Origin: a virus
IMG/VR virus record: IMGVR_UViG_3300042922_000265
Location: 103,374-167,373 of that record
Reading direction: 5' to 3' (one strand)
DNA length: 64,000 nucleotides
Shown: positions 2,210 through 37,372 of the stretch, one piece after another
Numbering within the stretch: position 1 is the stretch's first letter
How the letters are laid out: each line of letters opens with the position of its first letter
The notes under the pieces: generated by a model
Told to the model about the DNA's origin: nothing
Databases searched by the model: none
What the model saw: the letters and a program-made list of their open reading frames with translations, nothing else
Translations under genes and position numbers: made by a program

Positions 2210-2211
2210 TG

Positions 2212-2282
2212 CGGCCCATCCCGGAGTCGAACCGGGCTATCGCTGGGGTTAGAAGCCAGCTAGGTCGCCAGACCAATGAGCC
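2212..2282 (-). tRNA. tRNA with CUA anticodon (amber suppressor / tRNA-Pyl-like architecture)
   Basis: Acceptor GGCTCAT/ATGGGCC, G73; D arm GGTC-TGGC-GACC; anticodon arm GCTGG-C-TTCTAAC-C-CCAGC; T arm CCCGG-TTCGACT-CCGGG. Confidence 0.75.
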
Positions 2283-7729: not shown

Positions 7730-7758
7730 AGTATGTCAGACACTAGAACGTTTTGCAA
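7730..7758 (-). promoter_or_regulatory. SigA-like promoter with TTCTAG spacer box, leaderless
   Basis: TTGCAA-17-CATACT-6-ATG. Confidence 0.75.
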
Positions 7759-31839: not shown

Positions 31840-32704
31840 GTCTTTCGGCTCGCATTCTCTCGTGCACCATGTCCGGTGACATGCAGCTGTCGCAGGCCCA
31901 GACGCCCAGAGCGGGCCATTCCGGGGGCACCCAGTGGGCACCAGGTGAGCGGCAGGCCGAACAGATGCCCAGCCCGACGCTCACCCCGGTGATCGGTCGC
32001 ATTTACTTGGCCGCGTGCGAACGCAGGGCGTTCGACTTGGTGACCGTGACGCGCTGACCGCAGTCGTTGCAGATGCCGTAGTTACCGGCGCAGTAGCCCA
32101 GGCGGGCGGTCGCGCGATCGTAGTTGTGGGTCAGCGAGCCCTTGCACTTGCTGGCCTCGGCAGCCGCCTTCTTCTCAGCCTTGGCCTTGGCCTCGGGCGA
32201 GACGAACATCTTGGTCGGCTGGGCCAGGATCTCGACCGGAGCGGAGGGGAAGCACACGGTGCAGGCCATGCAGCCAGCGGCCTCGACGATCTCGGCCTCG
32301 TCCTTGCCCGAGTAGTCGATCATCCAGGCGTACTGCGTGGTGATGAAGCAGGTGCTGCAGTTCATCGAGCTGTGCACGTGGCCGTTGCTGTTGCTCACCA
32401 GGAAGGCGCGGCTCCAGCCACCACGGCGGACGTACTCGTTCTCGTAGGGCAGGGCCTCGGCCTTGATGGGCACCAGCTGCTCGCGCAGCGCGGGGATGCG
32501 GGCCTCGTACTTCTCGGCCAGACCATCGTAGTGCTTGAAGCCCTGCTTGACCGCCTTACGGGCGCTGCGAGCCTTGTCGTTGATGTCAGCGATCTGGGTC
32601 TGCACGGCGTTGATGCGACCCCAGATCTCAGAGAGGATGGTGTCGATCTCGGCGGGGGTCATGATGGTCAGGTCGGCGGTGGCGGTTCCGTTGCTCATGC
32701 ATTA

Positions 32705-32734: not shown

Positions 32735-34191
32735 GTCCTGCGCTGAAGACCCTTCAAGATGATCCGCCAGGACGGCGGCTCGGTGAGCAGACGTTCATGG
32801 TCGTAGTCGTAGACCGGGAACATCACCGACCACTCATGGCCACAATCGCACGGCAGGCCATCGGCACGCACACGCGCGCAGATGCTGCACTCCATCTGGG
32901 CCATCATTTGTGCCGCGCGCGTTCTCTGCTGCTCTTCGGCATCCGTTCGATCGTCTTGATCAGAGCGCGCTTGCGCCAGTTATACCAGCGCACCTTCTCC
33001 CAGTTGCGGCCAATGCCACCAGCCCAGGTGATGCCGCGCATCGAGTACTTGTACCAGTACCGACCGCAGCCATCGCATTGCCAGATCGATCCCACCGGGC
33101 GGTCACAACCGTAGCTGCCCGGATAGTCGCATTGGTGGCCATAGTCCACAGGCGGAGGCACAGGGGCGCGGTAGATGTCACCCACGAGCGTCCGCCCATT
33201 CCTTGGGCATGAAGCCACCCGAGGACAGCCAGGTGTCGAGCTGGATGGCGAACGTGGCCGCCTCCTCCCAGTCGTCACGGTTGACGGCGTCGCGCAGGTT
33301 GGTCAGAACGGCATCGGGGTCCATCAGTCTTCTTCCTGTCCGGTGAGCTTGTTGATGCGGTAGTAGTTCGGTCCCGAACGCCAGCCCGCAGGCCGGTCAT
33401 CGGTGGTGCGCTTACAGCAGGGCAGCTCAAACACCGAGCAGTCGGTATAGCGCTGCAGCACCTTGGCGGCACCGAGATCGAAGATCTGCCCGCACGTGCA
33501 GCGCGCGGGAAAGTTCATGCCCTTGATCTCGGCCAGATGATCAGGCCGATAGTAGGGCAGCGTCACGGCCTCGCTCCGATCGCGCGCACCGGGAACTTCG
33601 GTTTCCAGTCCATCAGCGTTCGGTAGTCGGTGGTGTCTTCCTCGGTCGCCTCAGCACCGTAGTGATACATGTAGCCCTCGGCGTTGGTCAGGTAGTACGA
33701 GATCCCGATCAGGTCACCCTGGTCAGTCGCGGCGGTGAGGAACACGGTCCCGGCATCATCGACACAGGCCAGCTCGGCCACCACGGCCTCGTCGTAGTTC
33801 ATCACCGTGATGCGCTCATGCAGCTCCTCCTCGGTGGAGAAGATCCTGACCTCGCTCATCCAAACACCTCATCCAGGATGCCCTCGATGACATTGCCGAT
33901 GCCCCTAGCGATAGCCCGGAAGAAGTTGGCGACCCTGCGCCCCGCTCGGCGGATCATGGCTTGGCCGTCAGTCTGTCGACCACAGCGGGACGCTTGGCCT
34001 GCTTGGGCGAGGTGATGCGCTGACCGCTGGTCAAAGTCGCCCCGGTGATCTTGTTGGCCCGGATGCGGATCTGCACCCGTTCGTTGCCGCGTTCGTAGAC
34101 GCGGGTCCACCAACCCAACAGACCGGTGCTCTGGCGCTTCCAGCCGTTGTTCTCGGCCAGCTTGTCGATGTCGTTCAATGTGTCTGCCACG

Positions 34192-34297
34192 TGCCCGTCA
34201 GGGAGTCGAACCCCGCCAGCACTCGGATCACGCGGTCAAGCGAAGGTCCTAGACCCTCTCCCTACGTGTCTTCGCTTCCAGCCCTCGCTGGACGAGC
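34192..34297 (-). ncRNA. tRNA-like RNA with long arm replacing the anticodon arm
   Basis: GCTCGTC/GACGGGC-A; CAGC-GAGG-GCTG; AAGCGAAG/CTTCGCTT; GGGG-TTCGACT-CCCT. Confidence 0.6.
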
Positions 34298-34438
34298 TTG
34301 CCCGGATGAGCGCCGGGACTTGGTGATGCGATCAGGCCCTGAAGGAGGCTGGTTCCCGGCGGCTTCTATTCCGGGGCCTCTAGGTCTATTATCGCGGTTC
34401 TCACGTAGCTCTCCCTTCCCGTGGGTGGATCGGTGCGC

Positions 34439-34818
34439 ATCAACAACTCAACAGAGAATCTGGCCAGCGAACCCTTGCTTACCCTCCCCGCTTTGTGCGC
34501 ACGCCACGGTTCTTCTCGGTCATCAGGTCTGCTGTTTGACACGGACACTTCACGGTGCATGGGGTCATGACTCCCCACTTACTCCGGCTCGGCCCTCGAC
34601 TTCGCTCCCCGTCTCCATGCTCTCCTCCACCGTTCGTTCAGGGATCGCTCTCCTGCTGGCCGGGCTCACCGTCTCGCGGATACCGCACAATGCGGGATCG
34701 TTGTACCTGGGGTCTTGCGCAGCGCTGGGAGAGTCGTGGTCGTTAGCCGTCAGCGGTGGGATCTCGGAGTTGGTTGGAAGGCACCTCGTCGGTCCAGATT
34801 CTCTGTTCGGTTGTCGAT
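34439..34818 (-). ncRNA. ~380-nt highly structured non-coding RNA
   Basis: Begins 6 nt after a -10 box; 5' ATCGACAAC-CG-AACAGAGAATCTGG pairs with CCAGATTCTCTGTT-GA-GTTGTTGAT; nested internal stems. Confidence 0.7.
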
Positions 34819-34824
34819 GGTTCA

Positions 34825-34853
34825 AGTATAGCAGCTCCTAGAAGGAACTACAA
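34825..34853 (-). promoter_or_regulatory. SigA-like promoter with TTCTAG box driving the ncRNA
   Basis: TTGTAG-TTCCTTCTAGGAGCTGC-TATACT-TGAACC-A. Confidence 0.75.
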
Positions 34854-35009
34854 CCCTGCTGAGCGGTTGGCTGCTCGCATCTGCGCCTGGGCAGAACGGT
34901 TCGACGTGAACACGCCCTTCACCTCGACAGAGAGGACCTTGCCCTCATCGTCACGCTTCACCGTGACGAGATTGCCCTGGCGGTTGATGTAGTGGCCTGC
35001 GTTGCTCAT
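34848..35009 (-). CDS. 53-aa leaderless protein (below ORF-track cutoff)
   Basis: MSNAGHYINRQG...; ATG 6 nt after CATACT of promoter 35016-35044. Confidence 0.7.
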   Translation of the reverse strand: MSNAGHYINRQGNLVTVKRDDEGKVLSVEVKGVFTSNRSAQAQMRAANRSAGL

Positions 35010-35015
35010 ACATCA

Positions 35016-35044
35016 AGTATGGCATAGCTCCTAGAATAATGCAA
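35016..35044 (-). promoter_or_regulatory. SigA-like promoter with TTCTAG box, leaderless
   Basis: TTGCAT-TATTCTAGGAGCTATGC-CATACT-TGATGT-ATG. Confidence 0.75.
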
Positions 35045-37372
35045 GCCCCTAGAGCTAACCAGTTTCAGACTGCTCTTCGCCCAGGTCAAGGCACCCAAGG
35101 CGCACCTGGTAGGCGCGCGGATTGGCCGGTTGGCTGGTCAGATGGAAGTGCATTCCGCACGGATAGACACGCATGGTGTGACCCAGGGTGCGACCGGCCA
35201 GCACCGCTGCCGACTCGGCCTCACGACGGACGTAGTAGCGGACCTTCTCCGGGTTGCGGCACTTCCCCGGCTGGACACGGCCCGTGCGCTGTGAAGGCAG
35301 CGGCGGGAACGGCACCACCTCCACGTAGTTCTTTCCCTTGGGCTGCTTGGGACCCTTACCACGCCTTTTGGACACCCCGACCCCCGTAGATCAGCGCTCG
35401 TGTCATCACGTCGAAGCAGGGCTCGCACAGTCGCATCTCCTTGAGCCCACGCATGGTGGGAAACGAGCCACCATGGGTGGCCTCGATAGCCCGGAGGCGG
35501 TTCAGGTAGCCCTGGTCGCTCAAGAAGTCCTTGAAGTCGGTCCAGACCTTCACCTTGGGCAGGCACAGCTCGCACGCCTTGTGCCAGGCGTACTGCTCGG
35601 CCAGCTGGTTGAACAGATGCCAGTCGTAGGTGCCTCGGTGACTGTGACCACGACCGAACACCGCGTTGCCGTCCTTGGCCGGGAACTTCTTGACCAGGTC
35701 CTGCGGGATGACTACCCAATGGCCCTTCTTGTCCGGGGCGATCGGATACGGGTAGGTGCCACGGTGCTTACCTGTCATGACCGGTTCGTCCAGCTGGTTG
35801 CGGTGTTGGCCGGGCGTTGGCACACTCCGGTGCAGAAGCACGGCTGCCCCTCATTGGGGCAACGAGGTCGCTCTTCCTCAACCTTGGGGAAGAGCGCACC
35901 GGGCAACAGTGTCGGTGCCAGCTCATCCTCCTGTGGTGCATGCTCGCGCCCGTACGCCATGATCGCCTCGAACTCGTCCTTGGACAGCCCGATGCGCCGA
36001 CCGGGCCGGGAGAACTCGATCCAGACCACCGGGAACTCGGTGCCGTTGTACTCGGTCACCTTGTCGACCTTCAGCTCAGCCATCAGATCGCCTCCGAGTC
36101 GTATTGGACATAGAGCACGCCGTTGCGCACGGCGGTGTCGAAGTTCTCACCGAACGTAAGGTAGCGGCCTGCGCGGATATGCGTGGCGACCAGAGAAGGA
36201 TTGGCCACTGGCACCGGATAGACCGCCCAGGTGAGCGGGCGTTCCTTCAGCGCGCTGGCGAAGCGCTTGAGCACCGCACGGTGCTCCCGGCGAGGCGGGA
36301 AGGTGTCTTCGGGCAGCTGGTCGACGAACCGGAATGCGCTCATCGCATGGCCGCCTGCTGCTGGGCGATCATCGAACGGACGTAGGGATCATTGGCGATA
36401 CGGTCCAGCAAGCGCGTACGCCCACCATGCACCCAGTTGGCGTCGTCGATCTTGCGCGGGTCGCACTCCTGAGAGGGCAGGACGCCGCAGTCCGGGCACT
36501 GGAATTGCTTGGACTCGGTCACCCGAGAGAATGTCATGTCCTGTCCTGCTCCTTCTTCATGTCTTTCAGCTGCTTGATGCGGTCCTTGCAGGTGGCGATG
36601 CCCTCGGTGGCCCGGCTCTCCATCTGATCAGCCAGGGTGACGTAATGCTGGTGATGCTCACGCATCTGCTTGGCCTGGCGAACTTCCTCCACGTTGCACT
36701 TCAGCGTCCACTCCGCGCTGCGGATGAGAGTGTCGATGTCCATTATAGCCGCTACTCCTTCTCGCGGATACGGAACGGCAGAATCTTCCACAGCCGCACT
36801 TGGGCTGCCAACAGCGACTTGTCCGTGCTGGAGTCAGCTCCCAGCTCGATGCCGGTGGGCTTGTGGATGAGTTGAACCGACCAAGCGCCGCCAGGGACAG
36901 CCTCCGGGGTGATGTCCCACACGACATCTGCGCCGTCGATCTCCGGCGGATCAGTGAGGGTGGTGCTGGCAGTCTCAAACAGGGTCTCGATGCCCAGCAG
37001 CTCGGCGAAGCGCGACCAGGGGATGATCACCGCACCAGGGTTGGAGTGATCGTCCTGGTAGACCATCACCGTGCCCTGCTTCTCCTCCACGAACTCGATC
37101 AGCCGGGTGACGCTGTCCGAGGACAGAGGCATCACCGCCTGGCGCAGATTGGTCAGTGGTTCTCTCATGCGAGCGCTCCTGTGATGATGTTGATGATGGT
37201 CATGAGCAGGACGCCGCAGGCGACCCCCATGGTGAAGATGATCCAGAACCACTGACGAATCATGGCGTCAGCGCCGAGATGATGAGTGATGCTCCCAAGA
37301 TCAGAAGGACGATGGAGCCCAGGACCACCGAGATGATGATCCACAGCGATGGTTCGTCACCAGGTTGCCCCA

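Follow-up and report, generated by a model that had tools for sequence, protein, structure and literature searches.

The locus, its promoter motif and its borders

The DNA analysed here, referred to as the window, comprises the last 64 kb (64,000 nucleotides, nt) of the 167,373-bp IMG/VR record IMGVR_UViG_3300042922_000265, which has direct terminal repeats and, among named phages, is most closely related to Myrna and Phabba, both Myrna-like mycobacteriophages of subcluster C2. The subject of this study is an element of approximately 380 nt, positions 34819-34438 on the minus strand of the window, which is a member of a previously undescribed and unnamed family of ornate phage non-coding RNAs. 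A preliminary description, made from the sequence alone, had proposed a promoter-driven, structured RNA at this place, with a long inverted repeat as its terminal stem. This repeat is present: each arm is 26 nt long, the arms are 88% complementary with 330 nt between them, and they include a perfect 14-bp block (P1 in Table 1). The 5' part of the RNA is C-rich and the 3' part G-rich, as had also been noted.

Upstream of the stem is the TTGTAG-N17-TATACT motif that had been named as the promoter. P1 starts 5-6 nt past the -10 hexamer, which places the predicted 5' end of the RNA at ~34819/34818. The motif is one of nine copies of a 29-nt sequence, TTGCAa-N5-TTCTAG-N4-CTG-N-cATACT, all of which are on the minus strand of the window, where 0.01 copies are expected. 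Judged by its sequence, this recurring motif is a phage-specific promoter class, of which the element owns one copy; the conserved spacer TTCTAG suggests either such a class or a regulator site within the spacer. The same promoter design is found upstream of the element in Phabba and Myrna, and a good -10 hexamer lies 4-40 nt 5' of P1 in approximately ten other members of the family.

The borders of the element are set by homology. Here, the limits of the blastn matches (34438-34819) are the ends of the terminal stem, and the sequence downstream of the P1 3' strand shows no conservation in Myrna or Phabba. A tRNA-like 3' extension spanning 34439-34190 was considered and rejected: this stretch is not conserved in Myrna or Phabba and is therefore outside the family element. 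Within it, positions 34303-34192 (minus strand), directly 5' of a GTG at 34190, could form an acceptor stem (GCUCGUC/GACGGGC) and include the sequence CGGGG-UUCGACU-CCCUG, which resembles a T arm. Neither ARAGORN nor Rfam calls a tRNA there, the minimum-free-energy fold lacks the acceptor stem, and the sequence is missing from Myrna and Phabba. In this phage, ~1.7 kb separate the RNA from the downstream homologue of Myrna gp9 (window 32003-32698), as opposed to 150-250 nt in Phabba and Myrna, and therefore an insertion of ~1.5 kb, comprising the tRNA-like stretch and several small open reading frames (ORFs), is placed between them.

Distribution and non-coding status of the family

Sensitive blastn searches find the element in 207 GenBank phages, all of which are cluster C mycobacteriophages; in the C1 phages, the DNA-level alignment covers only the two ends of the element. 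The two invariant strands of the first alignment served as exact search patterns in IMG/VR. The pattern CTGACGGNTAACGACCACGAC matched 29 IMG/VR contigs and one contig of a metagenome-assembled genome (MAG), and GCGAYCCCTGAAYGAA independently recovered this set together with seven further true members. Removal of duplicates left ~33 distinct versions in IMG/VR, with lengths of 223-406 nt. The carriers are phage or virus records, plus the one MAG contig, and the element is present as a single copy in the genome.

Known RNA families do not account for the element. When the window was searched with Rfam 15 (4227 models, including 6S, Ms1, transfer-messenger RNA (tmRNA), Y RNA, 5S, RNase P, GOLLD, ROOL, OLE and raiA), only four tRNAs elsewhere reached the gathering threshold. 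For positions 33800-35300 at E values of up to 10, the sole match was a chance one to the hairpin ribozyme, and in 17 relatives at gathering score only a neighbouring tmRNA was matched. Accordingly, 5S rRNA, RNase P and the other Rfam classes were dismissed, and so was a hammerhead, as the CUGAUGA of the window copy is not conserved and has no Rfam match. The lack of a matching covariance model is consistent with the new class that the preliminary description had allowed for. The text of PMC10690425, which concerns ~10,000 unnamed candidate RNAs from IMG/VR, has no mention of this RNA; it may be one of the unnamed candidates there.

In GenBank, the records of Myrna, Phabba and ScoobyDoobyDoo have no annotation at the locus, while in C1 phages from one to three hypothetical proteins are placed there, the number varying with the annotator. 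For example, Trinitium genes 61 and 62 (L012 2055-2674) and Daffodil genes 68-70 (L013 1984-2674) overlap the RNA element. Such calls, together with the presence of some open frame of 45-146 amino acids in every copy, would favour a region that encodes one or more small proteins, either these or the window ORFs 34565-34825 and 34366-34578. However, the frames close at different places in each lineage, so that a frame open in one is shut in others, and the sole frame common to several lineages spans 33 codons in Phabba and, in Myrna, has none of the start codons ATG, GTG and TTG. When ORF 34565-34825 was compared to its three closest relatives, the substitution rates at codon positions 1, 2 and 3 were 0.25, 0.28 and 0.25, that is, the third position was not raised, and of 26 indels only three were multiples of three and 23 were not. 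Instead, the substitutions are compensatory across the helices described below. With no conserved ORF and no third-position bias, the element is non-coding, in agreement with the earlier statement that it holds no convincing ORF, and a protein-coding region is highly improbable. The ORFs annotated over it in C1 phages vary in number and borders among near-identical genomes and are lacking in the three phages mentioned above; at least those portions of them that fall within the element are probably spurious.

The genes nearby are variable as well. Within 4 kb of the element, no gene family is kept across 29 loci, with the exception of the syntenic Myrna-like phages. In the latter, a small release-factor-like gene, annotated as RF-1 or RF-2 and followed by a nucleotidyltransferase, is found ~2.5 kb upstream of the RNA (Table 1). 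This neighbour hints at translation-related surroundings, although these genes are not conserved beside the RNA in other carriers.

Covarying helices and invariant junction strands

The structure was predicted with RNAalifold from an alignment (A1) of 28 diverse members, and a covariation scan and inspection were then used to refine it; the alignments were made using MAFFT and manual anchors and are not model-based. Nine helices covary in these 28 members and comprise 41 pairs, compared to 34 pairs in the first version. Standard pairs occupy 90.2% of the cells versus 65.3% after shuffling, and none of 500 shuffles reached the observed value. When the pairing partners were slid by 1-3 columns, only 34-40% of the cells were paired. 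Further support came from changes on both sides of a pair, which were seen in 33 of the 41 pairs, with 283 double-change cells versus 85 after shuffling. Conservation among the homologues is of the base-pair type and not of the codon type, as would be anticipated from the preliminary description. Two positions in P3 retain U.G wobbles in 19 of the 28 members, and therefore the minus strand of the window is the RNA strand.

The consensus fold is a Y consisting of the terminal stem P1, a three-way junction, the Domain I rod and the Domain II arm. P1 is 9-31 bp long across the family and its sequence is entirely different between phages. Domain I is composed of P2, P3, P3b, P4 and P5, broken by purine-rich internal loops, with the J1/J2 junction within the rod; the span of P5 ranges from 15 to 114 nt. 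P2 is joined to P6 by a conserved strand, GAGAAC, which in the Myrna-like lineage is interrupted by a 60-nt insertion. The hairpin in this insertion shows no variation among the four sequences carrying it. Several of the helices in the preliminary description were retained: CCACCG/CGGTGG (P4) and CTCTCC/GGAGAG (P5) have covariation support, and CCGCA/TGCGG and TGGGG/CCCCA are seen as lineage-specific hairpins in the constrained fold. In contrast, TGCCTTCC/GGAGGGTA and ACTCCG/CGGAGT have been replaced by P3 and P3b, as the comparative data pair UGCCUUC (34783-34777) with 34610-34603 and CUC (34769-34767) with 34622-34620.

Table 1. Coordinates of the RNA element and associated features (window positions, unless a locus is named)
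Feature	Position	Strand	Remarks
Promoter motif	34825..34853	-	-35-like TTGTAG 34853-34848; spacer TTCTAGGAGCTG (conserved); -10 TATACT 34830-34825; read from sequence
Nine copies of the 29-nt motif	7730-41111	-	5' ends at 7758, 16041, 20153, 22533, 25791, 31839, 34853, 40769, 41111
P1 5' strand (terminal stem)	34794..34819	-	Inner 7 pairs all changed on both sides across 28 members
P1 3' strand	34438..34463	-	Homology to other phages stops here
P2	34791-34788 (CGAC) with 34600-34597	-	4 of 4 pairs covary; 95.5% of cells paired
P3	34783-34777 (UGCCUUC) with 34610-34603	-	Bulged A; covariation
P3b	34773-34767 (CCA-A-CUC) with 34622-34615	-	Three innermost pairs counted: 90% paired, all double-changed
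P4	34759-34754 (CCACCG) with 34632-34627	-	4 counted pairs all covary; 95.5% paired
J1	34735..34753	-	CUGACGGCUAACGACCACG; near-invariant strand; consensus CUGACGGYUAACGAYCACG
J2	34633..34648	-	GCGAUCCCUGAACGAA; near-invariant strand; consensus GCGAYCCCUGAAYGAA
P5	34646..34736	-	Strands 34736-34728 and 34653-34646; lineage-specific extension 34727-34654; 5 of 8 closing pairs covary
Myrna-like insertion	34537..34596	-	Only in the window copy, Phabba, Myrna and ScoobyDoobyDoo
Insertion hairpin	34577-34560	-	UGGGG-AGUCAUGA-CCCCA; loop holds a second palindrome, UCAUGA (34570-34565)
P6	34534-34531 (CAGC) with 34468-34465	-	4 of 4 pairs covary; closes Domain II at the three-way junction; mapped by hand
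Loop-E-like internal loop	34478..34517	-	GAGAAGAA / GGAGGGUAAG; flanks hairpin P8; conserved as GAGAGUA and GAGGGUAGG
P8 hairpin	34509-34506 with 34491-34488	-	Three counted pairs all covary
Palindromic core of the P8 loop	34495..34502	-	GUGCGCAC; predicted symmetric kissing-loop dimerisation site
Release-factor-like gene	Myrna gp2, L001 5014-5403; Phabba gp002, L002 4745-5125		

These helices bear on whether the locus could be a DNA-level element, such as a miniature inverted-repeat transposable element (MITE), an origin or a packaging site. The 26-nt terminal inverted repeats around a ~330-bp interior have that appearance, and the gene neighbourhood differs between phages. However, the locus is present once per genome, and eight internal helices covary in addition to the terminal one. 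The conserved G.U wobbles, and the G.U-tolerant palindrome described below, work on one RNA strand only. For a mobile element of the MITE or mycobacteriophage mobile element (MPME) type, the repeats are unrelated in sequence between phages, which leaves nothing for a transposase to recognise. A DNA-level element is thus almost certainly not the explanation.

Domain II contains an internal loop that resembles loop E of bacterial 5S rRNA. In Escherichia coli 5S rRNA, the loop E strands GAUGGUAG and GAGAGUAG face each other; in the element, GAGAGUA faces GA(G/U)GGUAG below a hairpin. The strand order is swapped, however, and the 5S model is unmatched, so that the likeness is interpreted as a building block that may be shared with 5S, and not as homology.

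The most strongly conserved sequences are the J1 and J2 strands. In the seven members that were found via J2, J1 varies only at the Y positions and at one position past the 19-nt core. J1 probably forms a mini-hairpin, GACG-GYUAA-CGAY, to judge from pairs that are either invariant or G-C/G.U, with the variable position being C or U opposite G. The same region raises the prospect of an RNA polymerase decoy similar to 6S or Ms1, in which the Domain I rod and the J1/J2 "bubble" would imitate an open promoter or serve as a binding site for core polymerase, thereby redirecting host transcription. Domain I is indeed an extended, irregular duplex that opens widely into two strands between P4 and P5, the RNA lies among promoter-rich small-gene regions, Ms1 is present in the host genus, and a role in the takeover of host expression is plausible for both. 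On the other hand, there is no match to 6S or Ms1 in the window copy at E values of up to 10 or in the 17 relatives at gathering score, and instead of the single rod of 6S, with its closing stem, large central bubble and terminal stem-loop, the element has a second domain and branches into a Y. In 6S RNA, the shape of the bubble is conserved and its sequence is not, whereas J1/J2 is near-invariant in sequence, and the probable J1 mini-hairpin would turn the opening into a three-way junction and not a bubble. A polymerase decoy is therefore regarded as rather improbable. Of the suggestions in the preliminary description, a promoter-driven, structured non-coding RNA that may be a new large phage class is strongly supported by the nine covarying helices, the lack of a coding signal and of an Rfam match, and the breadth of the family; the specific functions, a 6S/Ms1 mimic and an antitoxin or defence-protein sponge, were neither borne out nor contradicted.

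A further possibility is that the element is a derivative or partner of a translation-related RNA, namely, a tmRNA paralogue that lacks the tRNA-like domain or a Y RNA for a phage Ro60. By eye, the P1 5' strand is similar to tmRNA helix 2, J1 (GCU AAC GAC CAC GAC) could encode an "ANDHD" tag, and tmRNA genes are located just downstream of the element in two carriers (L023 and L035). For the Y RNA, the phage encodes a TROVE/Ro60 protein, and CUGGACCGA resembles the Ro-binding CUGGUCCGA of human Y1. The tmRNA relation was rejected: the best blast score against three phage tmRNAs was 24.3, compared to a shuffled mean of 24.0, ARAGORN and the Rfam tmRNA model find nothing at the element, the flanks past P1 are not conserved, a separate full tmRNA is present in the genome, and the putative tag frame has no consistent stop. 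As a tmRNA was found at or near the Rfam cut-off in four of ten other carrier genomes, the association is at most an enrichment and not an obligate link. The Y RNA was likewise rejected as a general explanation, because the Rfam Y RNA model is unmatched, the Ro60 gene is ~36 kb from the element, and TROVE is missing from all ten other carrier genomes, eight of which are at least 90% complete; the element is therefore not a Y RNA tied to phage Ro60. In either form, a translation-related origin is very unlikely.

The tmRNA of the phage itself lies outside the window (G000:C1:44185-44617, equivalent to L003 1501-1933, minus strand) and scores 58.4 bits with Rfam while being missed by ARAGORN. It has an unusual T-arm region at its 3' end and is surrounded by seven tRNA genes and one aberrant tRNA call. 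Within the window, ARAGORN calls a tRNA at 2211-2282 (minus strand) with anticodon CUA (labelled Pyl), a potential amber suppressor, beside four tRNA-Leu and one tRNA-Ser.

The palindromic P8 loop and a proposed mode of action

The most informative feature of the family, and one missing from the preliminary description, is a covarying palindrome in the loop of P8. This loop reads GGA-NNNNNNNN-GAA, and its core in the window copy is GUGCGCAC. A perfect palindrome of at least 8 nt is present in 23 of the 28 P8 loops, whereas shuffled loops gave 0.94 on average and never more than 5. The palindrome itself is not fixed, as there are at least seven different ones, including GUGCGCAC, GUGGCCAC, GUUGCAAC, GUCCGGAC, GCUGCAGC and GGUGCACC; GGUGCAUC also occurs in P8 loops and is self-complementary only when G.U pairs are allowed. 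When the copy in L052 (4172-4439) is compared to that in L070, 7 of 268 nt differ, and four of these turn GGCC into CCGG at the centre of the palindrome, a change with the look of a natural specificity switch.

A single loop leaves no room for eight contiguous self-complementary bases to pair with one another, and therefore selection is most simply for pairing between two copies. A core that switches and yet remains self-complementary is the signature of a symmetric kissing-loop homodimer. The dimerisation initiation site of HIV-1 is a purine-flanked loop palindrome as well, which natural variants swap while staying self-complementary. The element resembles it in the purine-flanked loop GGA-GUGCGCAC-GAA, although the context is unrelated and the core is 8 nt instead of 6 nt. 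The argument from palindrome covariation has been applied to loop L9.3 of OLE and loop L21a of GOLLD, for which cryo-electron microscopy of the homo-oligomers revealed kissing-loop bridges (PMC12286853).

The switching palindrome is one of several likenesses between the element and GOLLD, ROOL and OLE, large ornate RNAs of bacteria and phages that assemble into RNA-only homo-oligomers. The element is likewise encoded by phages, has an elaborate fold of numerous covarying helices and invariant junctions, and is sometimes beside tRNA or tmRNA genes. In terms of a functional grouping of ornate self-assembling phage RNAs, which does not imply homology, the element has both the large, covariation-supported multi-helix fold and the palindrome-covariation signature. 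It differs in that there is no sequence or structure match to the Rfam models of these RNAs, in its length of 223-406 nt versus ~580-800 nt or more, and in being so far restricted to large actinophage-like genomes. In addition, only one self-complementary loop is universally conserved, which predicts a dimer and not a cage.

An analogy can also be drawn to the prohead RNA (pRNA) of phage phi29, whose 5' and 3' ends are paired in a long helix leading to a three-way junction and arms with intermolecular loop-loop pairing. The pRNA uses two different complementary loops and forms rings on the portal of small podoviruses. The element shares the end helix, the three-way junction and an arm with predicted loop-loop pairing, but it has a single palindromic loop, is found in large, myovirus-type genomes and shows no link to packaging genes.

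Taken as a whole, the element is probably, and with moderate confidence, best explained as a promoter-driven, self-dimerising phage RNA that acts in trans as a scaffold or decoy, with J1/J2 as its working site. Here, the RNA would be transcribed from the phage-specific promoter whose -10 hexamer ends shortly before the terminal stem and would accumulate as a discrete species bounded by P1, possibly following processing. The core of the P8 loop would pair with the same loop of a second molecule, so that the RNA most likely works as a homodimer. Its probable working site is the invariant J1/J2 junction. The partner bound there, most likely one common to all hosts or phages, would be a small molecule or else a conserved protein or RNA, and the element would thus function as a scaffold or decoy during infection. 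Action in trans is favoured by the lack of a conserved neighbouring gene family, by an intrinsic, strong terminator located 39 nt past the 3' end of the element in L043, and by the single copy in the genome.

Several observations weigh against this account. The folding energy of the single sequence is only modestly better than that of shuffles (z = -2.4), and by this measure the opposite strand is its equal; the evidence beyond chance therefore comes from covariation and not from energy. A scan with a generic sigma-70 consensus calls no promoter at 34853-34825. The perfect 8-nt palindrome is missing in 5 of the 28 P8 loops, and a dimeric protein that binds this loop is computationally indistinguishable from RNA dimerisation. 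No partner for J1/J2 was identified. When 151 Actinomycetota genomes were searched for the reverse complement of the J1 core with at most two mismatches, no conserved antisense target emerged; the matches were scattered over both strands and not far above a reversed-pattern control. These genomes include four unpublished ones (G121, G002, G049 and G089), on which this negative result partly rests.

The 3' boundary is a further point against it. A terminator is located within 160 nt of the element in only two of 27 members, and C1 phages have a gene start ~45 nt downstream, so that the RNA may belong to a longer transcript or need processing. The same facts suggest a cis-acting leader, that is, a riboswitch-like or processing element that controls downstream genes on the same transcript. 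Most members are without a terminator right after P1, a ribosome-binding site and start codon are found within this short distance in C1 phages, and invariant junction strands are typical of ligand pockets. However, the downstream genes vary between phages and none is conserved across loci, while in the window an unconserved spacer of ~250 nt precedes the next plausible ORF. In L043, the strong terminator lies only 39 nt past the element. Both ends of the RNA are sequestered by P1, far from any ribosome-binding site, and it is not obvious what a palindromic kissing loop would contribute to control in cis. Consequently, a leader is unlikely, and the trans-acting, self-dimerising RNA remains preferred.

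A bolder version of the trans-acting RNA can be offered tentatively and is doubtful as it stands. The element may represent a new class of self-assembling phage RNA, in which two or more copies joined via P8 use J1/J2 to capture a universally conserved component of host translation or RNA processing during takeover. The palindrome would then be a "mating type", and its switching from GGCC to CCGG would bar mixed particles between related, co-infecting phages. In the Myrna-like lineage, the second palindromic loop, UCAUGA, could permit chains or higher oligomers.

Few phages have been sampled as well as the cluster C mycobacteriophages, which include Bxz1, Myrna and more than 200 SEA-PHAGES isolates. 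Even so, this locus carries no annotation in some of them and inconsistent hypothetical ORFs in others, which recognition of the RNA gene corrects. The new family is well supported and joins a short list of large, ornate RNAs of bacteria and phages. It comes with a culturable and genetically tractable system, as phage recombineering is established in M. smegmatis. Here, the palindrome-switching loop provides a ready, testable prediction of RNA-RNA dimerisation.

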